From Betaproteobacteria bacterium (GTDB lineage: Bacteria > Pseudomonadota > Gammaproteobacteria > Burkholderiales > SG8-41), in assembly GCA_046339595.1 (NCBI GenBank), contig JBKDUF010000048.1, positions 4,351-68,350 on the forward strand: DNA of 64,000 bases, in the 5' to 3' direction. Position 1 is the first letter of the stretch, and each line of letters starts with the position of its first letter. Under the pieces are notes generated by a model that did not search any database, had not been told where the DNA came from, and was given only the letters and a program-made list of their open reading frames with translations. Positions 5,078 to 51,094 of this stretch are shown one piece after another. The position numbers and the translations under genes are program-made.

Positions 5078-5096
5078 GGTGCCTGGATTAAATTAT

Positions 5097-5116
5097 CAAT
5101 AAAAACAAATACTTAT
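5097..5116 (+). repeat. AT-rich intergenic motif, copy A (CAATAAAAACAAATACTTAT)
   Basis: Exact 20-mer shared with copy D and, in reverse orientation, 19/20 with copy C. It lies between the prpD-like stop and the dsbA-like start, flanked by ATTAAAT direct repeats. Confidence 0.8.
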
Positions 5117-5145
5117 TAAATCAATACGATTGAGGGAGCGCCACC

Positions 5146-5793
5146 ATGGCCGAACGCCTGCAGATCGACATCGTTTCCGACGTGGTTTGACCCTGGTGCT
5201 TCATCGGCAAGCGCAAGCTGGAAGCTGCGCTGAAACAGTTCACCGAACTGTATCCCGATGATCCCGAGCCGGCCGTGCGCTGGCTGCCGTTCCAGTTGAA
5301 TCCGGGCCTGCCGCCCGAAGGCATTTCGCGCGCCGACTATATTTTCCGCAAGTTCGGCGACCGCGACAGCTCGCGCTACGACCGCGTGGCAGGCGTCGGC
5401 AAAAGCGTCGGCCTTGACATGGCTTTCGACAAAATCCAGGTGCAGCCGAACACGGTCCGCGCACACCGGCTGATCCACCATGCCGGCGAACTTGGCAGCC
5501 AGGATGCGGTGGCCGAAGCACTGTTCCGCGCCTATTTCTGCGAAGGCGCCAACCTGACCGACATCACGGTGCTGGCGCGCTATGCGGCGCAGGCTGGCCT
5601 TGACCGCGCGGCCACCGAGGCCTTTTTGCGCAGCGACGAGGGCGCGGACCTGATCCGCGCCGCGGATGCCGAGGCGCGCCAGGCCGGCATTGAGGGTGTG
5701 CCGTTTTTCATCGTCAATCGCACCATCGGATTGTCCGGAGCGCAGGACCCCGAGGTGCTGCTGCAGGCCATGCAGCAGGCCCGCGCCGCCTAA
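5146..5793 (+). CDS. DsbA/FrnE-like thiol:disulfide oxidoreductase with in-frame TGA at the redox motif (Sec candidate or nonsense-disrupted)
   Basis: ATG 5146 follows a GAGGGA Shine-Dalgarno. It reads MAERLQIDIVSDVV-TGA(5188..5190)-PWCFIGKRKLEAAL..., in frame with track ORF 5275..5793. The TGA sits where the family has the first Cys of CPWC. The downstream part is DsbA-like (EGVPFFIVN). Confidence 0.7.
5196..5230 (+). promoter_or_regulatory. candidate SECIS-like hairpins downstream of the in-frame TGA
   Basis: There are two alternative hairpins. One is GUGCUU/AAGCGC (5196..5214, loop CAUCGGC). The other is GCGC-A-AGCU/AGCU-GCGC (5211..5230, loop GGA). Their loops lie about 14-32 nt after the UGA. 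They were folded by eye only. Confidence 0.3.
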
Positions 5794-5804: not shown

Positions 5805-7265
5805 ATGAGCCAATCCGCTGGATACCGCCACGCGCTAAAGGCGGGGACCACGCTCAACGAGTACCGCGTGGAGTCGGTGCTCGGCGCCGGCAGTTTCTGC
5901 ATCACCTACCTTGCGAGGGATGTCCACCTCGACAAGCCGGTGGCGATCAATGAGTATCTGCCGCGGGACCTCGCGCTGCGCGCGCTCGACGGCAGCGTGG
6001 CGCCGGTTTCCACCGCTCACCGCTTCGATTACCAGTGGGGGCTCGACCGGTTCATTCAGGAGGCGCGCGCCCTGGCACGCGTCAGCCATCCGCATATCGT
6101 GCGCGTACACCGCTATTTAGAGCTTAACGGCACCGGCTACATGGTGATGGACCATGAGCAAGGCGAGTCGCTGACCCAGTACCTGGAGCGAGTCCCGCTG
6201 CCGCCGGAAGATGAAATACGCCGACTGCTGATGCCACTGCTCGATGGCCTTGCCGCAATACACGCTGAGAACATCCTGCACCGCGATATCAAGCCCGCCA
6301 GTATTTTCATCCGCAGCGATGCGCAGCCCGTGCTGCTGGATTTTGGCGCGGCGCGCGCCGTCGGCAGCGCGACGCGCAGCCTGACCGCTGTGCTGACGCA
6401 GGGTTACGCGCCCCTCGAGCAATACTCGCCCGACGGCAAACCGGGACCATGGTCGGACCTGTATGCCCTGGCGGGGGTGCTCTTCCTCATGGTAACCGGC
6501 CGCAATCCGCCGGACGCCGTGACACGGCTGCAACTCGATACGGTGCCTGCAGCACTGCATGCTGCGCGAGGCCGCTACAGCGCGGTACTGCTGCAGACCA
6601 TCAGCCGAGGGCTGACGGTGAATGCGGGATCACGGCCACAGAGCGTGGCCGGTTGGCGCGCGTTGCTGGAACCCGCGCCAGTGCATGGCCAGGCGGGTAC
6701 TGCCCCGACCACGGCAGTTATCGGTGCGGCCTTGAAGACTGTCGTCAAGAGTCCGGCGGCAGGCGCCCAGACCACGGTGCGCACTGCGGTGTCCGTGCCC
6801 GACCACAGCGAGGCGTGGAAGCGCCTGACCCGGGCGGTTTTCTGGCTGCTCGCCATCAGCATTGGCATCAGCTGGTACGTGAAGCGCGAAACCGATCCGG
6901 CACCAGCACCCGCAATCGCTGCGCCTTCGGCGAAACGCGCGCCGGTGCAAGTCGAGGTTGTGCAGGCCCCGGCTCTCGAGGAGCTTCCGGTGTCACCTGC
7001 GATCGCAGCCCCTCCGGCTGATGTCGTGTTGGTGAAACCGGTCGAACTGTCCCAGGGGCGTGTACCCGAGCGTATGGCCAGCGAATTCCGCGGTGCAGAC
7101 CGTGACGGCGACGGTTATCTTGCGCCCGCTGAAGTGGAGGAACGTTTTCCGCTTATCGCGAAAGAACTCGCTAAAGTCGATCGCGATGGCGACGGCCTAA
7201 TTTCGATCGAAGAATTCGCTGAGTGGCGCCTTCAGCCGGTCGAACGCCGGCCGCTGCGCAAATAG
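5805..7265 (+). CDS. Hanks-type Ser/Thr protein kinase with one TM segment and a C-terminal EF-hand pair
   Basis: Kinase motifs are present (GAGSFCITYLA, HRDIKPASIF, DFGAAR, GYAPLEQ). A TM segment (AVFWLLAISIGISWYV) is followed by a Pro/Ala-rich linker and two DxDxDG loops (DRDGDGYLAPAEVEE, DRDGDGLISIEEF). Confidence 0.85.
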   Translation: MSQSAGYRHALKAGTTLNEYRVESVLGAGSFCITYLARDVHLDKPVAINEYLPRDLALRALDGSVAPVSTAHRFDYQWGLDRFIQEARALARVSHPHIVRVHRYLELNGTGYMVMDHEQGESLTQYLERVPLPPEDEIRRLLMPLLDGLAAIHAENILHRDIKPASIFIRSDAQPVLLDFGAARAVGSATRSLTAVLTQGYAPLEQYSPDGKPGPWSDLYALAGVLFLMVTGRNPPDAVTRLQLDTVPAALHAARGRYSAVLLQTISRGLTVNAGSRPQSVAGWRALLEPAPVHGQAGTAPTTAVIGAALKTVVKSPAAGAQTTVRTAVSVPDHSEAWKRLTRAVFWLLAISIGISWYVKRETDPAPAPAIAAPSAKRAPVQVEVVQAPALEELPVSPAIAAPPADVVLVKPVELSQGRVPERMASEFRGADRDGDGYLAPAEVEERFPLIAKELAKVDRDGDGLISIEEFAEWRLQPVERRPLRK

Positions 7266-8525: not shown

Positions 8526-9497
8526 TTACCTGAGGCCGAGCAACAACAGCCCCCAGGACCCAAGGCCCAGGAAGGCGATCAGGTGAACCCAGGCCCAGAT
8601 CCGGTAGCGCCGCCCCAGGTTGTCTGGCATCTCATTGGCGAGCAGGAACAGCCGGCGGTCGCGCGGCTTGCGCAACAGGTGCACGCCTTCGGTCTGCGCG
8701 CCAAACTGCTCGTGGTGGCGCTTGCGCACCTCTCCGATAGCGGCCAGCCGCGCCTGCCCCCACTCTTCCAGGCTGATCTTGCCGTCGCGGTCGGCATCAA
8801 AACGCTGCAGCAGCATTTGCGGAGTGTTTTTCCACTCCGTGATCAGCGCGCTGACATCGAAATTCTCGTCGGCGGCGCTCAGCACATTGCCGCTGTGCGT
8901 GGTGAATTCACCGATCGCGTACACCGGGCCTTCGGGCAGCAGCAGCCATTCGGTATAGCGGCGACCGCTCTCCTTCCACTGCTTGCGATGGCTGCTTACC
9001 ACCTCGGCGCCGTCAGGCGAGATTACACAGGCACCGGTGGCGTCCACCAGCAGGAAGTGATCGATGCTGGTGTTCTCTTCAACCGTGCTCCACTTGTTAT
9101 TGCTGTCCTGTTCTTCGACGGTGTAGTGATACCAGCAGCAGGCCCGCAAACTGACTGGTGAGCGTACGGTTGAACCGTCGAGCAGGCGGCCCACGCCGAA
9201 GAGCTCGACATACCCTTGAGCGGCAGAGGCAATATGCGATGTCGGCAGGTCGTGAATGGCACGGTAGCGGCGGGTGTTGCCGATCCAGGCAAAAAAGCTG
9301 ACCACACTCATCGCCAGCAGTGCCCAAGGCCAGCTTTGGGGGTTCTGGTTTTGCAGCGCGATGGCCAGGATGATCGCGTGCAGCCCGCCGGAGAGCAGGA
9401 TCGGCCCGCGGCCGCGGTAACCCGCGAGGCTGAAGGCTGAGGCGTTCAAGTGGAGACGGATTCGGGCAAGATGCGTATCCGGGGGCAGAAAGATCAA
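8526..9497 (-). CDS. membrane protein with GIDE-like domain and an EF-hand loop
   Basis: It has N-terminal TM segments and a GIDE-like core (VELFGVGR...SPVSLRACCWYHYTVEE), then an EF-hand DADRDGKISLEEW and a C-terminal TM. It lies next to lemA, a common pairing. The start is uncertain (TTG at 9497). Confidence 0.55.
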   Translation of the reverse strand: MIFLPPDTHLARIRLHLNASAFSLAGYRGRGPILLSGGLHAIILAIALQNQNPQSWPWALLAMSVVSFFAWIGNTRRYRAIHDLPTSHIASAAQGYVELFGVGRLLDGSTVRSPVSLRACCWYHYTVEEQDSNNKWSTVEENTSIDHFLLVDATGACVISPDGAEVVSSHRKQWKESGRRYTEWLLLPEGPVYAIGEFTTHSGNVLSAADENFDVSALITEWKNTPQMLLQRFDADRDGKISLEEWGQARLAAIGEVRKRHHEQFGAQTEGVHLLRKPRDRRLFLLANEMPDNLGRRYRIWAWVHLIAFLGLGSWGLLLLGLR

Positions 9498-11876: not shown

Positions 11877-12455
11877 ATGAACAACATCTGCATTTTTTGC
11901 GGTTCGAACAGCGGTCGCGGCGAGACCTACGCCGAATCAGCGCGGGCGATGGTGGCGGCAATCGGCGAGGCGGAGCTGGGCATCGTCTTCGGCGGTGGCA
12001 ACATCGGGCTGATGGGGGTGATCGCCGAGGCGGCGCTGGCGCAAGGCGTACGTGCGGTGGGTATCACGCCGCGGCGCCTGCTCGAGCGCGAGGTGGTGCA
12101 TACCGGCCTGAATGAGCTGCACGTGGTCGAATCCATGCACGAGCGCAAGGCGCTGATGCGCGCGCAGTCCGATGCCTTCATCGCGTTGCCGGGCGGGCTG
12201 GGCACGCTGGACGAACTGTTTGAAGTCGCGGCGCTGACCCAGCTCGGCGAGCATCACAAGCCCTGCGGCCTGCTCAACACCTCGGGCTATTTCGACGGGC
12301 TGCGCGGTTTTCTGGACCATGCCGTGGCCGAGCGCTTCGTGACCCCGGTGCACCGGGACCTGCTGGTGGTGGAGTCGGACCCGCGGCGGCTGATTGCCGG
12401 ACTGCGTGCCTGGAAACCGGCACAGTCCAGTAAATGGATGGACCGCAAGGCCTAG
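11877..12455 (+). CDS. LOG family (TIGR00730) nucleotide phosphoribohydrolase
   Basis: Carries the motifs ICIFCGSNSG, GIVFGGGNIGLMG and PGGLGTLDELFE. Confidence 0.9.
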   Translation: MNNICIFCGSNSGRGETYAESARAMVAAIGEAELGIVFGGGNIGLMGVIAEAALAQGVRAVGITPRRLLEREVVHTGLNELHVVESMHERKALMRAQSDAFIALPGGLGTLDELFEVAALTQLGEHHKPCGLLNTSGYFDGLRGFLDHAVAERFVTPVHRDLLVVESDPRRLIAGLRAWKPAQSSKWMDRKA

Positions 12456-12547
12456 GTCCTGCCGGTAATGGGGGCATAAGAAATTTTGAGTCTGGCCCCG
12501 TGGTGGCCCCCATAAAATCCGCCAGCCACCATGCACCGGGGAATCCC

Positions 12548-15430
12548 ATGAGCGCCAGCGCCGAGACCGTCGTCCGCAGCGAAACCCGCAACACCACCTG
12601 TTACATGTGCGCCTGCCGCTGCGGCATCCGCGTGCATCTCAAAAACGGTGAAGTCCGTTACATCGAGGGCAATCCCGAGCACCCGCTGAACCAGGGCGTG
12701 ATCTGCGCCAAGGGCGCCTCGGGCATCATGAAGCAGTATTCGCCGGCGCGCCTGACCCAGCCGCTGAAGCGCAAGGCCGGCGCCGAGCGTGGCGCCAACG
12801 CCTTCGAGCCGATCAGCTGGGATGAAGCCTTCCGCATCATGGAGGAACGGCTGCGCAAGATCCGCTCGACCGATCCGCGTAAATTCGCGCTGTTCACCGG
12901 CCGCGACCAGCTGCAGGCCCTGACCGGCCTGTTCGCCCGGCAGTTCGGCACCCCGAACTACGCCGCCCACGGCGGCTTCTGCTCGGTGAACATGGCCGCG
13001 GGCATGATCTACAGCATCGGCGGCAGTTTCTGGGAGTTCGGCGGGCCCGACCTCGACCGCGCGAAGCTGTTCGTGATGATCGGCACCGCTGAGGACCACC
13101 ATTCCAACCCGCTCAAGATCGCAATTTCAAAGTTCAAGCGCAGCGGGGGCAAGTTCATTTCCATCAATCCGGTGCGCACCGGGTACTCGGCGGTGGCCGA
13201 CGAGTGGATCCCGATCCGCCCCGGAACCGACGGCGCGCTGCTGCTGGCGCTGAACCACGAACTGCTGCGCCAGGGCCTCTACGACCGCGACTTCATCGCC
13301 CAGTACAGCAACGCCGGCTATCTGGTGAACCTTGACGAATCCAGCGACCAGTTCGGCATGATCGTCTGCGATGAACAGGCCGAGGAGAAGAACCCGCACC
13401 GCAAGCACCAGCAGCTGTGGTGGGACCGCCATTCCAACCGCGCGGTGATCAACCACACGGCAGGCAGTGACCCGGCACTGACCGGCAGCTACCGCCTGCC
13501 CGACGGCACACCGGTGAAGCCGGCTTTCGAGCTGCTGCGCGAACGCCTGGCCGGCTATACGCCGGAATGGGCCGCCGGCATCACCGGCATTGATGCCGAG
13601 ACGATCCGCCGCCTGGCCAGGGAAATGGGCATCACCGCGCGCGACCAGAAGATCGAACTGCCGATTGCCTGGACCGACAGCTGGGGCCGCAAACACGACA
13701 AGGTCACCGGCAACCCGGTGGCCTTCCATGCGATGCGCGGACTGGCGGCGCATTCCAACGGCTTCCAGACCATCCGCGCGCTGTCGGTGCTGATGTCGCT
13801 GCTCGGCACCATTGACCGGCCGGGTGGCTTCCGCCACAAGGCGCCGTTCCCGCGCAGCACGCCGCCGGTGTATGCGCGCAATCCTAACGATCCGGCGGCC
13901 GTGAAGCCGGACACGCCGCTGGGCGGCGCGCCGCTGGGTTTCCCCGGCGGTCCGGAGGACCTGTTCGTGGACGAACAGGGCGGTCCGGTGCGCATCGACA
14001 AGGCCTTCTCCTGGGAGCATCCGCTGGCGGTGCACGGGATGATGCACAACGTCATCACCAATGCCTGGCGCGGTGACCCGTACCGCATCGACACGCTGCT
14101 GATCTTCATGGCGAACATGGCGTGGAATTCGACCATGAACACGGTCGAGGTGCGCAAGATGCTGAACGACAAGGACGCGTCGGGTGAATACAAGATCCCG
14201 TTCCTGATCGTCTGTGACGCCTTTCAGTCGGAGATGACGGCTTTCGCCGACCTGATCCTGCCCGACACCACCTACCTCGAGCGCCATGACGTGATGTCGA
14301 TGCTCGACCGGCCGATTTCGGAATTCGACGGACCGGTGGATTCGGTGCGGGTGCCGGTGGTGCCGCCCAAGGGCGAGTGCAAACCCTTCCAGGAGGTGCT
14401 GGTGGAGTTGGCGGGGCGGTTGAAGTTTCCGGCCTTCACCAAACCTGACGGTTCGCGCAAGTTCAGGGACTATCCGGATTTCATTGTCAATTTTGAAACC
14501 GAGCCGGGATCGGGGCAGGGCTTCCTGATCGGATGGCGCGGCAAGGATGGCGACAAGGCACTGGTCGGTGAACCCAATCCGAAGCAGTGGGAGATGTACG
14601 CGAACAACAACTGCGTGTTCCACCATGTGATGCCCGAGTCGCACCAATACATGCGGAACTGGAACCTCGGCTATTCCGAGTGGGCGCAGCAGATGAAACT
14701 GCGCCGCTTTGCAGACCCGGTGATCATCCAGCTCTACGCCGAGGTGCTGCAGAAATTCCGCCGCGCCGCCAAAGGCCACGGCAAACGCGTGCCGCCGTCG
14801 CAGCTGCGCGAGCGCATCCTGACCTATTTCGACCCGCTGCCCTTTTATTACACGCCGCTGGAGGTGCAGGCTTCGGACACGGCGACCTATCCGCTGGCGG
14901 CGATCACCCAGCGGCCGATGGCGATGTATCACTCCTGGGATTCGCAGAACGCCTGGCTGCGCCAGATTCATGCGCATAACTATCTGTTTGTAAACGAAAA
15001 AACGGCACTGGCCGAGGGTATCGCCGACGGCGACTGGATCTGGGTGGAGTCCGCCCACGGGCGCGTGCGCTGCCTGTGCCGCCACAGCAACGCGGTGGAG
15101 CCGGGGACGGTGTGGACCTGGAATGCCATCGGTAAGGCGCAGGGCGCCTGGAACCTCGCACCGGAAGCAAACGAGGCCCAGCGCGGCTTTCTCCTCAACC
15201 ACCTGATTACCGAGGAACTGCCGGCAGGCGAGGGACGGACGATTTCGAATTCCGATCCGGTGACCGGACAGGCCGGCTGGTATGACGTGCGGGTACGCAT
15301 CCGCAAGACCGCTGCGGACGAGCCGGCGGAAACCTTCCCGCAGGTCGCGCCGCTGACGCCGCTGCCGGGCATGAATCCGGTGCGCCGGCTGTGGCAGGGC
15401 TTTGTTGCGGGGACAGGTGAATTCAAATGA
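12548..15430 (+). CDS. molybdopterin (bis-MGD) oxidoreductase catalytic subunit without Tat signal, SoeA-like
   Basis: ATG 12548 (MSASAETVV...) precedes the N-terminal Fe-S motif CYMCACRCG...VICAKG. It has a possible Mo-ligand region AHGGFCSVN and is ~960 aa. No RR signal peptide is visible. It is followed by Fe-S and membrane subunit genes. Confidence 0.8.
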   Translation: MSASAETVVRSETRNTTCYMCACRCGIRVHLKNGEVRYIEGNPEHPLNQGVICAKGASGIMKQYSPARLTQPLKRKAGAERGANAFEPISWDEAFRIMEERLRKIRSTDPRKFALFTGRDQLQALTGLFARQFGTPNYAAHGGFCSVNMAAGMIYSIGGSFWEFGGPDLDRAKLFVMIGTAEDHHSNPLKIAISKFKRSGGKFISINPVRTGYSAVADEWIPIRPGTDGALLLALNHELLRQGLYDRDFIAQYSNAGYLVNLDESSDQFGMIVCDEQAEEKNPHRKHQQLWWDRHSNRAVINHTAGSDPALTGSYRLPDGTPVKPAFELLRERLAGYTPEWAAGITGIDAETIRRLAREMGITARDQKIELPIAWTDSWGRKHDKVTGNPVAFHAMRGLAAHSNGFQTIRALSVLMSLLGTIDRPGGFRHKAPFPRSTPPVYARNPNDPAAVKPDTPLGGAPLGFPGGPEDLFVDEQGGPVRIDKAFSWEHPLAVHGMMHNVITNAWRGDPYRIDTLLIFMANMAWNSTMNTVEVRKMLNDKDASGEYKIPFLIVCDAFQSEMTAFADLILPDTTYLERHDVMSMLDRPISEFDGPVDSVRVPVVPPKGECKPFQEVLVELAGRLKFPAFTKPDGSRKFRDYPDFIVNFETEPGSGQGFLIGWRGKDGDKALVGEPNPKQWEMYANNNCVFHHVMPESHQYMRNWNLGYSEWAQQMKLRRFADPVIIQLYAEVLQKFRRAAKGHGKRVPPSQLRERILTYFDPLPFYYTPLEVQASDTATYPLAAITQRPMAMYHSWDSQNAWLRQIHAHNYLFVNEKTALAEGIADGDWIWVESAHGRVRCLCRHSNAVEPGTVWTWNAIGKAQGAWNLAPEANEAQRGFLLNHLITEELPAGEGRTISNSDPVTGQAGWYDVRVRIRKTAADEPAETFPQVAPLTPLPGMNPVRRLWQGFVAGTGEFK

Positions 15431-15458
15431 CGCAATTCGTTGGCAGGGAGTGTGCGCA

Positions 15459-16160
15459 ATGACCCAGCTCGCGTTGGTGATCGATCTGAATGTCTGTGTG
15501 GGCTGCCATGCCTGTGTGACCAGCTGCAAGGAATGGAACACCTCGGGGGAAGCCGGCTTCATGGCCGACGACAACCCCTACGGCCGTGATCCGACCGGGA
15601 CCTTTTTCAACCGGGTGCAGACCTTCGAGGTGGGCGAGTTCCCGGACACGCAGACCGTGCATTTCCCCAAGTCCTGCCTGCATTGCGAGGACCCGCCGTG
15701 CGTGCCGGTGTGTCCGACCGGCGCCAGCTACAAGCGGCCGGAAGACGGCATCGTGCTGGTGGATTACGACAAGTGCATCGGCTGCAAGTACTGCGCCTGG
15801 GCCTGTCCCTACGGCGTGCGCGAACTGGACGAACACCAGAAGGTGATGAAGAAGTGCACGCTGTGCGTGGATCGCATCACTGACCAGAGCCTGCCCGAAG
15901 CCGAACGCAAGCCCGCCTGCGTGCTGGCCTGTCCGACCAACGCCCGGCTCTACGGCGACATCCATGACGAGGAATCGATCGTGTCGAAGGCGATCCGTGA
16001 AGCCGCGGGCTACCAGCTGATGCCCGAGTGGGGCACCAAGCCGGCCAACCATTACCTGCCCCGGCGCGCCCCTGCGCTGCAGACCGCTGGCGTCGGCGCC
16101 ACGGCCAATCCGCTCGATATCGACGGCCCGATGCCGCAGGCCACGGAGGGCCGGCCATGA
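15459..16160 (+). CDS. 4Fe-4S dicluster electron-transfer subunit (DmsB/SoeB-like)
   Basis: Starts MTQLALVIDLNVCVGCHACVTSCKEWN and has further Cys clusters (CLHCEDPPCVPVCP, CIGCKYCAWACP, CTLC...CVLACP). Confidence 0.85.
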   Translation: MTQLALVIDLNVCVGCHACVTSCKEWNTSGEAGFMADDNPYGRDPTGTFFNRVQTFEVGEFPDTQTVHFPKSCLHCEDPPCVPVCPTGASYKRPEDGIVLVDYDKCIGCKYCAWACPYGVRELDEHQKVMKKCTLCVDRITDQSLPEAERKPACVLACPTNARLYGDIHDEESIVSKAIREAAGYQLMPEWGTKPANHYLPRRAPALQTAGVGATANPLDIDGPMPQATEGRP

Positions 16161-22217: not shown

Positions 22218-22486
22218 CAGCTTGTCCATGCCTTTCGGCACGGGCTGGACTATGCCTTCATCCCGGTTGCACGGGATGCGGAGCGTGTTATCCGCTTGCG
22301 CGAATCCTAGTATCTGCCCCCCGGATGCAACCCGGTCGGCAGATCTATGAGTCTCTACAGGGCAGGCCTGAAGTTGGCCCTCTTCCTACCCCTCGGCGTT
22401 GCCATGCCGTCCTTGGCGAGACGGTGCAGGTTTCACCGATGTGAGCTCCGTTTACATTCTGCTCTTGCGAACAGACGCGACCATTG
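22218..22486 (-). mobile_element. group I intron-like insert (269 nt, no ORF) in the tmRNA T-loop
   Basis: The 5' exon ends in U and the insert ends in G. A P1-like helix CGAU/GUCG places a U:G wobble at the junction. A P4-like pairing UCGGUG/CGCCGA and a P5-like hairpin CCGUC/GACGG are present, plus several GNRA-capped hairpins (GCAA, GAAA). The segments CGGUGAAACCU, AUGGCAACGCCGAG and GUAGAGACU resemble the Azoarcus tRNA-Ile IC3 intron as I recall it. Confidence 0.75.
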
Positions 22487-22710
22487 ATCGAACCCGCGTC
22501 CGCAAGCCCTCCACAGTCAGGACTACATGCTTAGCCTGGTTGTTTGGGTTTCGCCTCGCACCCGCCAGCCGGCAGGCTGATGTTTGGCTAGTCGCTTCGA
22601 CGGATCCGCAGGATTAAGCGACCAAACCCTGCAGAGAGGCTGATGTGAATGACGTTGCACCCCTTTCGGGGCCTGACCCATCAGCAGATCAGTGCAACGT
22701 CTAGCCGGTG

Positions 22711-22743
22711 TTAGGCGGCTAGAGAATAACGCTCGTCGTTGGC
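22711..22743 (-). other. tmRNA tag reading frame (ANDERYSLAA, then stop)
   Basis: Read directly from the minus strand. It resembles proteobacterial ANDE..ALAA degradation tags. Confidence 0.8.
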
Positions 22744-22886
22744 GTGTATAGATTTCCAGCGGATTTACAAGGTGACTGGACCTTGGCATGCCCTGTGCTG
22801 CTTTGTGACCCACGTCGAAACCAGGTCGCCCCCAATCTGACGCTTCGACATTATCGCACGGCAGGGGTTCCCTGCCGGATCGAGTG

Positions 22887-50456: not shown

Positions 50457-50549
50457 GGAGAGATGGCCGAGTGGTCGAAGGCGCGCCCCTGCTAAGGGCG
50501 TATGGGGACAAAATCTCCATCGAGGGTTCGAATCCCTCTCTCTCCGCCA
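50457..50549 (+). tRNA. tRNA-Ser (anticodon GCU)
   Basis: GGAGAGA/UCUCUCC acceptor stem, anticodon loop CTGCTAA, a long variable arm, GGTTCGAATCC T-arm and CCA. Confidence 0.95.
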
Positions 50550-50686: not shown

Positions 50687-50774
50687 GCCTGTAACACGAC
50701 GGGGCAATCTGCAAGACCCTGCAGATCGGCTCGACCCCGTAGGCATCCCGGTAGCGGTCTATGTAAGCCTTCAA
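50687..50774 (-). pseudogene. IS3-family transposase OrfB, 5' fragment only
   Basis: Reads [30 protein letters not shown] and then unrelated sequence. The DDE domain is absent. Confidence 0.7.
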
Positions 50775-51094
50775 GACTTGAGTCGGCGGTCGAGCTCCGC
50801 CTGGGCAAAAAACGCGCTGGCCGTCTTGAGGATCTCGTTGGCCCGACGCAGTTCCTTGACCTCGCGTTCCAATGCCTTGATGCGCTCTCGCTCGCTGGTG
50901 GTCAGACCATCACGCTGGCCGCTGTCGACCTCATCAAGCTTGACCCATTCCAGCAAGGTCTGGGGCACGCAGCCGATCTTGGGCGCAATGGATTCAACGG
51001 CAGCCCACAGAGATGGATACTCGCCCCGGTGCTCCTGCACCAGGCGCACCGCACGCTCACGGACCTCGGGGGAAAACTTGTTCGTCTTGTTCAT
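50771..51094 (-). CDS. IS3-family transposase OrfA (HTH)
   Basis: [52 protein letters not shown]..., followed by a leucine-zipper-like tail. Confidence 0.9.

Follow-up and report, generated by a model that had tools for sequence, protein, structure and literature searches.

The "DsbA-like protein" (COG2761, with a UxxC motif) was predicted as a selenoprotein family from the Sargasso Sea metagenome by Zhang, Fomenko and Gladyshev in 2005 (PMC1088965). DsbA-like selenoproteins were reported from a few genomes in 2006 (PMC1794560) and from 41 organisms in 2016 (PMC5029168), and "DsbA-like protein form 1, PF01323, UxxC" is listed in a 2026 review (PMC13188914). The genomes named for the family in Table 3 of PMC1794560 are those of anaerobes (Anaeromyxobacter, Desulfovibrio and Desulfotomaculum). 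As for the order Burkholderiales, the selenocysteine (Sec) trait is given as present in supplement 3 of PMC5029168. In this study, we analyzed a 64-kb stretch of contig JBKDUF010000048.1 (assembly GCA_046339595.1) from a Burkholderiales lineage; the whole stretch is called the window, and all positions are counted within it. We conclude, with a probability of roughly 0.87, that positions 5146-5793 are one intact FrnE/DsbA-like gene, in which the nucleophilic residue of the CxxC motif is a selenocysteine encoded by UGA. A first-pass annotation of this DNA had proposed Sec at this codon and had stated that DsbA-like selenoproteins are described in surveys; the latter statement is correct (PMC1088965, PMC5029168, PMC13188914).

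The closest protein with a solved structure is FrnE of Deinococcus radiodurans (drFrnE, DR_0659; 5CNW/5CP1), which matches residues 2-212 of the predicted product with an E-value of 2.7e-44. drFrnE possesses activity as a disulfide isomerase and in the reduction of insulin and is reduced via thioredoxin reductase, and its mutant shows sensitivity to cadmium and diamide (PMC8945050).

The gene opens at ATG 5146. A Shine-Dalgarno sequence, GAGGGAG (5132-5138, +), was read from the sequence 7 nt before the start codon. The first 14 codons, MAERLQIDIVSDVV, are followed by TGA at 5188-5190 and then by PWCFIGKRKLEAAL, and the next stop codon in the translation is TAA at 5791-5793. The complete gene (5146-5793, +) therefore has 215 codons plus TAA, with Sec as codon 15; its extent is backed by the translation, the Pfam match and the match to 5CNW. 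The open reading frame (ORF) 5275-5793 (+), which gene callers report with a GTG start and 172 amino acids, is the 3' portion of the frame opened by ATG 5146, and it lacks both strand beta1 and the active site. Thus, the good Shine-Dalgarno sequence at ATG 5146 and the frame that passes through TGA into this DsbA-family ORF, both proposed in the first-pass annotation, are confirmed.

When the stop codon was replaced by Cys, residues 6-210 matched the entire Pfam domain DSBA (PF01323; profile positions 1-191 of 191) with 139 bits. In the Pfam alignment and in the 5CNW alignment, TGA coincides with the first residue of the CxxC motif. In the alignments to 5CNW/5CP1 and to the Cys homologues, the redox motif U-P-W-C (5188-5199, +) is the counterpart of drFrnE C22-P-W-C25. 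The placement of TGA at the first Cys of CPWC had been claimed before, and both alignments agree with it. The FrnE subfamily (cd03024) is recognized by homology and a CP(W/F)C-type active site, and both are found here, the motif being UPWC. Likewise, the predicted protein carries the PF01323 domain with Sec first in UxxC, as in DsbA-like form 1, which is defined in Tables 1 and 3 of PMC1088965 and in the table of PMC13188914. Strand beta1 starts from residue 5, and the N-terminus MAERLQIDIVSDVV, which lies 14 residues ahead of the active site, constitutes this strand. A signal peptide was not recognized by inspection of the same N-terminal sequence, which was read without a predictor. Since there is no signal peptide, the protein is predicted from its sequence to be a cytoplasmic FrnE-type (COG2761/PF01323) DsbA-like oxidoreductase. 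Its C-terminus is ...QAMQQARAA, ending at residue 215, and the C-terminal CxxxxC Cys pair of many FrnE members is not present. Streptomyces roseofulvus FrnE and the Deinococcus maricopensis homologue lack the CxxxxC tail as well (PMC8945050), and a protein without it can therefore still be a member of FrnE. Among the NCBIfam models, none is specific for the FrnE-like protein, and the sole match was far under its cutoff.

The TGA codon is conserved. The exact 172-aa ORF of the window occurs on 13 metagenome contigs from different sequencing runs. In the six of these that were fetched (L201-L206), the 648 nt of the gene, including TGA, are identical, and so are the upstream 30 nt. Four orthologues from Burkholderiales/Betaproteobacteria metagenome-assembled genomes (MAGs), which represent four GTDB species and share 73-78% amino acid identity (L001-L004), have TGA at the same codon, and their N-terminus before TGA is intact (M....IDIVSDVV). 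The scan of a genome collection also gave 76 loci of at most 59% identity (L005-L080), in which this codon is TGC or TGT. Furthermore, metagenomes were scanned with a degenerate pattern around TGA in which every synonymous position was free. At least 120 contigs carrying TGA were detected, and nearly all of the complete ones extend into an ORF of approximately 200 amino acids. Thus, UGA is kept in orthologues of four GTDB species and on at least 120 contigs with the protein conserved on both sides in a full-length DSBA domain, and it is aligned with TGC/TGT in 76 loci and with C22 of FrnE, which makes a Sec/Cys pair. Hereafter, homologues with TGA and with TGC/TGT are called Sec forms and Cys forms, respectively. 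The nearest orthologues are all Sec forms, and no Cys form has more than 62% identity. The first-pass annotation had suggested an orthologue alignment in search of such a split with a conserved structure; the split was found, and the conserved element described below is larger than the small hairpins drawn at that time.

The peptide encoded before TGA is also conserved. When 70 distinct sequences from the clade of the window were compared, the eight codons before TGA showed a synonymous difference (pS) of 0.51 and a nonsynonymous difference (pN) of 0.061, giving a pN/pS of 0.12; the search pattern had partly constrained three of the eight codons, and pN is somewhat lowered by this. In most of these sequences, an ATG is located 14-16 codons before TGA. 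The purifying selection and the retained ATG together show that translation of the protein includes the peptide before TGA. We considered and rejected a genetic code that lacks UGA stops, because TGA is the commonest stop among the long ORFs of the window and terminates 38 of 56.

The context of the codon was examined in the alignment of the Sec forms. The base before UGA is U in 55% and C in 42% of them, whereas the base before TGY in the Cys forms is C in 68%. The base after UGA is always C, from the Pro codon. The resulting UGA-C is a weak termination context.

Downstream of UGA, positions 5201-5261 (+) form a structure resembling a selenocysteine insertion sequence (SECIS), in which a closing stem surrounds two hairpins; it was delineated by folding and by codon resampling. 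Nucleotides of this element are numbered with the U of UGA as 1. The closing stem has UCAUCGG (nt 14-20; 5201-5207, +) as its 5' arm, which begins 10-11 nt past UGA and is paired in the Sec forms. The 3' arm, CCGAUGA (5255-5261, +), falls in the codons CCC-GAU-GA, whose synonymous choice is skewed. The region 5200-5262 folds with -27.8 kcal/mol (z -4.97), and none of 200 shuffled sequences was as stable. No Rfam family matches the structure at 5201-5261.

To this structure, synonymous resampling was applied, in which the protein was held fixed and the codons were drawn from the gene's own usage. For nt 13-75 of the Sec forms, the mean z was -2.54, and 91% of the sequences were below -1. In three control regions taken from these genes, the z values were -0.71, +0.15 and -0.29. 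For nt 13-72, the mean z was -1.93 in the Sec forms versus -0.37 in the Cys forms, and the value of the window sequence was -3.15.

The closing stem pairs nt 15-20 (CAUCGG, in the F/Y-I-G codons) with nt 68-73 (CCGAUG, in the P-D-E/D/G/A codons). These pairs are formed in 96-100% of the 70 Sec forms, whereas Cys homologues with the same H/R-P-D residues pair in only 17-84%. In the minimum free energy fold, the stem appears in 66 of 70 Sec forms versus 3 of 76 Cys forms. The synonymous codons of the 3' arm are nearly fixed: Pro is encoded by CCC in 64 of 65 cases, compared with 30% elsewhere in the Sec-form genes, and Asp by GAU in 63 of 64, compared with 34% elsewhere. In the Cys homologues, the same Pro and Asp residues are encoded by CCG, CCC or CCT and by GAC or GAT, mixed freely. 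In the 5' arm, three changes were seen, each of which leaves a wobble pair. By the stem counts and the z values of the resampling and of the window fold, a conserved stem-loop, the predicted binding site of SelB, is present right after UGA. Codon selection on a stem that only the Sec forms keep is a sharper test of the SECIS of this family than generic hairpin criteria. The conserved TGA and the conserved structure of the Sec forms both support the selenocysteine reading of the first-pass annotation.

As an independent check, the same stem was found at the same place in a distant Sec clade (MKVEIWSDIVUPWCYIGKRRFETALERFDHRADV), in which ACAUCGGC at nt 14-21 pairs with GCCGAUGU at nt 64-71. There, the 3' arm is encoded by A-D-V, versus P-D-E in the window's clade. 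This second clade consists of L110, L129, L137, L143, L150, L153, L155, L169, L175, L177 and L187 and is nearer to Deinococcus FrnE. Its members form one long hairpin of approximately -40 kcal/mol, closed by ACAUCGGC/GCCGAUGU, and another hairpin lies just downstream. On the contig of L150, ARAGORN reported a "tRNA-Pyl (cta)" at 9011-9092 (+), which is probably a mis-call. Approximately 30 more homologues with TGA (for example ITIDIVSDTIUPWCYIGKRRLESALA) are without the closing stem; they include L084-L086, L092, L104, L108, L120, L122, L136, L141, L142, L144, L146, L156 and L166. We suspect that these are transcripts of marine eukaryotes (algae) with a SECIS in the 3' untranslated region.

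Inside the closing stem, the window sequence has two hairpins. Hairpin b, AGCGCAAGCU-GGA-AGCUGCGCU (5210-5231, +), has a stability of -10.8 kcal/mol and a GGA loop at 5220-5222, 29 nt past UGA. It is the candidate SelB-binding hairpin of the window sequence. Hairpin c, ACAGUUC-ACC-GAACUGU (5235-5251, +), has -6.0 kcal/mol and z -4.3. The full stem of hairpin b exists only in the window and in L165, and close relatives retain just its GCGC/GCGC base. Hairpin c is retained in 10 of the 10 members of the window's subclade. In most other subclades, one long irregular hairpin takes the place of the two, with its apical loop approximately 38 nt from UGA; this hairpin was detected in 37 of 70 Sec forms versus 9 of 76 Cys forms. 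The apical loops vary by subclade (GGA, GCU, AUUGA and others) and lie 29-38 nt from UGA, and the stem begins at nt 14-15. A long hairpin in a fixed register, nt 24-63, was taken from one subclade and tried on the whole clade, where 56% of the cells were paired with weak covariation. Since this model fails and the window's subclade misfits, the inner structure varies between subclades. RNAalifold with the 70 Sec forms yielded nothing beyond a trivial hairpin of 5 bp at nt 7-19, in the Trp/Cys/Phe/Ile codons; it is too near UGA and is possible in Cys forms too, and it was rejected.

Two alternative hairpins had been drawn in the first-pass annotation, at 5196-5214 and 5211-5230. The latter stands: with the flanking pair 5210-5231, it is hairpin b. 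The former reaches only -4.7 kcal/mol (z -1.4), and it is not usable as evidence for Sec, since the same kind of hairpin forms in Cys homologues. Both are parts of the larger structure at 5201-5261, which had not been drawn.

On the basis of these results, we infer the following mechanism. The ribosome would initiate at ATG 5146. When UGA enters the A site, the mRNA structure at 5201-5261, which starts 11 nt downstream and has one or two inner hairpins enclosed by the closing stem UCAUCGG/CCGAUGA, would be bound by SelB and recruit SelB-GTP-Sec-tRNA(Sec), so that Sec is inserted instead of termination. The 215-aa product, with U15-P-W-C18, would alternate between two forms, selenol/thiol and selenenylsulfide. 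It may reduce or isomerise disulfides of cytoplasmic substrates as the Cys-type FrnE of Deinococcus does, with a more reactive centre. By analogy with that enzyme, the most likely role would be the reduction or reshuffling of cytoplasmic protein disulfides under oxidative or thiol stress. Since the CxxxxC tail is not present, the regeneration route or the reductant must differ from that of drFrnE.

Several observations weigh against a Sec residue. In the 64-kb window, selA, selB, selD and tRNA-Sec were not found by ARAGORN, Rfam and Pfam analysis of the ORFs. No tRNA-Sec was detected by ARAGORN in the flanks of 48 orthologue loci, and a local tblastn search of 1.9 Mb of DNA with provisional E. 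coli SelD and SelA sequences as probes gave no matches. These negative searches are uninformative, because linkage of the sel genes to a selenoprotein gene is not expected. As for the RNA, the closing stem is either invariant or changed in ways that preserve a wobble pair, with no full compensatory double changes, and the Sec-form sequences are phylogenetically related, so that the counts given above are not independent events. In a generic bacterial SECIS scan (a single hairpin with a 3-14 nt loop containing G, 16-37 nt from UGA), the Cys forms scored better than the Sec forms (-11.5 versus -6.2 kcal/mol). Under relaxed criteria the two were equal (-15.6 versus -15.1 kcal/mol), and the generic hairpin was rejected as a Sec/Cys discriminator. 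Such hairpins arise in both forms because the K-R-R-L-E-A-A-L codons are self-complementary. Finally, a single inner structure in a fixed register is paired in only 56% of the cells across the clade.

A rival idea is that UGA is recoded without Sec. In that case, the structure and the leaky UGA-C would let a near-cognate tRNA for Trp, Cys or Arg read through the codon, or the lineage would be without Sec machinery. Such recoding would agree with the failure to find Sec machinery in the window, the 48 orthologue flanks or the 1.9 Mb of DNA, with the C that always follows UGA, and with the poor fit of the structure to the textbook small SECIS. However, the codon sits exactly at the nucleophilic Cys of CxxC, as in a classic Sec/Cys pair, where Trp or Arg would destroy the active site, and a Cys codon could serve directly, as one does in 76 relatives. 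The existing catalogues already count the family among the selenoproteins (PMC1088965, PMC13188914). In addition, the stem starts 11 nt past UGA, the same spacing as is reported for the SECIS of E. coli fdhF. We therefore regard recoding without Sec as improbable. A bolder form of it is that aerobic Burkholderiales decode UGA without SelA, SelB, SelC and SelD, the 60-nt structure being a Sec-independent stimulator of read-through that inserts Cys or another residue; we consider this quite improbable. In a milder version, the closed CAUCGG/CCGAUG structure would be a family-specific SECIS architecture overlooked by the standard bacterial SECIS models.

The gene could also be a pseudogene, in which a TGY-to-TGA nonsense mutation in a Cys-type FrnE left nothing functional or only the 172-aa fragment from GTG 5275. 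Gene callers give only 5275-5793, and the window shows no Sec machinery, as would be expected for such a remnant. However, TGA is retained across proteins that are 71-97% identical while pS is approximately 0.5, the upstream peptide is under purifying selection (pN/pS 0.12), the start codon and the Shine-Dalgarno sequence are kept, and a Sec-specific RNA structure follows the codon. Moreover, the 172-aa fragment would be without strand beta1 and the whole active site. The first-pass annotation had named a simple nonsense mutation as its alternative, with this gene as the lone TGA among its orthologues, and this is contradicted by the nearest orthologues (L001-L004) and at least 120 contigs, all of which have TGA. 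A pseudogene is thus very improbable. An error of sequencing or assembly, or a polymorphism confined to one strain, for which a one-base change from TGC/TGT to TGA suffices, is hardly credible, since the identical sequence is present in six contigs that come from separate runs and projects and at least 120 related contigs have TGA at the same codon. The pseudogene and the sequencing error are effectively excluded.

The Sec codon has led to a systematic annotation error. Of the best 120 database homologues, 110 are N-terminally truncated (169-200 aa, 71-97% identity) and are without the active site, and full-length homologues among these 120 appear only at 62% identity or less. The gene is cut at the Sec codon in the NCBI, JGI, ENA and Logan gene calls, and several of the truncated proteins begin only a few codons past TGA; the NCBI entries named "DsbA family oxidoreductase" begin with MGKRKLE, five codons past it.

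The surroundings of the gene are as follows. The 68-nt spacer upstream (5078-5145) is strikingly AT-rich in a GC-rich genome, and a promoter scan of its plus strand found no sigma-70 consensus. A gene for a Ser/Thr protein kinase of 486 aa, which has EF-hand motifs at its C-terminus (5805-7265, +), starts 11 nt past the stop codon of the selenoprotein gene, and the two genes may be co-transcribed. The gene order TctC - MmgE/PrpD - DSBA - kinase is unchanged in L201-L206. Contig JBKDLO010000148.1 of MAG GCA_046344275.1 aligns to the window over 12.7 kb with 12 mismatches; a contig from JGI matches as well.

Other features of the window were also recorded. The ORFs of SelA-, SelB- or SelD-like length were assigned by Pfam to a tRNA (uracil-5-)-methyltransferase-family protein with a TRAM domain, UvrB and PheA, and were rejected as sel genes. 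A 998-aa molybdopterin oxidoreductase is encoded at 12434-15430 (+), followed by a 4Fe-4S subunit at 15402-16160 (+). It is most like PhsA and the DMSO-reductase family, with all matches under the curated cutoffs, and since its ORF is uninterrupted, it is not a Sec-containing formate dehydrogenase. A transfer-messenger RNA gene is located at 22485-22825 (-; Rfam RF00023, 139 bits), which ARAGORN did not report. At 50700-50816 (-), an ALIL pseudoknot (RF01497, 112 bits) adjoins tRNA-Ser (50457-50549, +). We take this pseudoknot to be the frameshift element of an IS3-family transposase, which would mean an insertion sequence beside the tRNA-Ser gene.

Our results indicate that an uncultured Burkholderiales lineage very probably uses Sec in a cytoplasmic FrnE-type disulfide oxidoreductase. 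As far as part of the supplement to PMC5029168 shows, cultured Burkholderiales mostly have a single selenoprotein. The selenoprotein family itself is already known, and the knowledge of selenoproteins is unchanged in kind. What is modestly new is the extent of the mis-annotation and the closed SECIS-like architecture of approximately 60 nt with its codon signature, common to two distant clades.

As in DsbA-like form 1, the window protein has the same Pfam domain, Sec first in UxxC, widespread Cys homologues and a stem-loop right 3' of UGA. The difference is that it belongs to a large uncultured clade of Burkholderiales/Betaproteobacteria, sampled in metagenomes of soil, freshwater and groundwater; the closed structure of approximately 60 nt in this clade was not found described for the family. 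Compared with D. radiodurans FrnE, UPWC takes the place of CPWC, and both proteins are without a signal peptide. In contrast, drFrnE has Cys instead of Sec, and its C-terminal tail C239xxxxC244 helps to regenerate the active site.

The periplasmic DsbA of E. coli is secreted, has a CPHC motif, acts as an oxidant and is returned to its oxidised state by DsbB. The window protein shares with it the thioredoxin fold, the inserted helical domain and the CxxC-type site at the N-terminus of helix 1. However, it is without a signal peptide and groups with FrnE rather than with DsbA proper.

The SECIS of E. coli fdhF is a hairpin of approximately 40 nt, which begins approximately 11 nt past UGA and has a small apical loop with conserved G/U and a bulged U. 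The window element is similar in that a stem-loop lies in the coding sequence and starts approximately 11 nt past UGA, and its GGA loop is 29 nt from UGA. In most relatives, the element is one long irregular hairpin, and its apical loop is approximately 38 nt from UGA, at or past the upper limit of the usual search model. Unlike the fdhF element, that of the window has a length of approximately 60 nt, with a closing stem around two hairpins.

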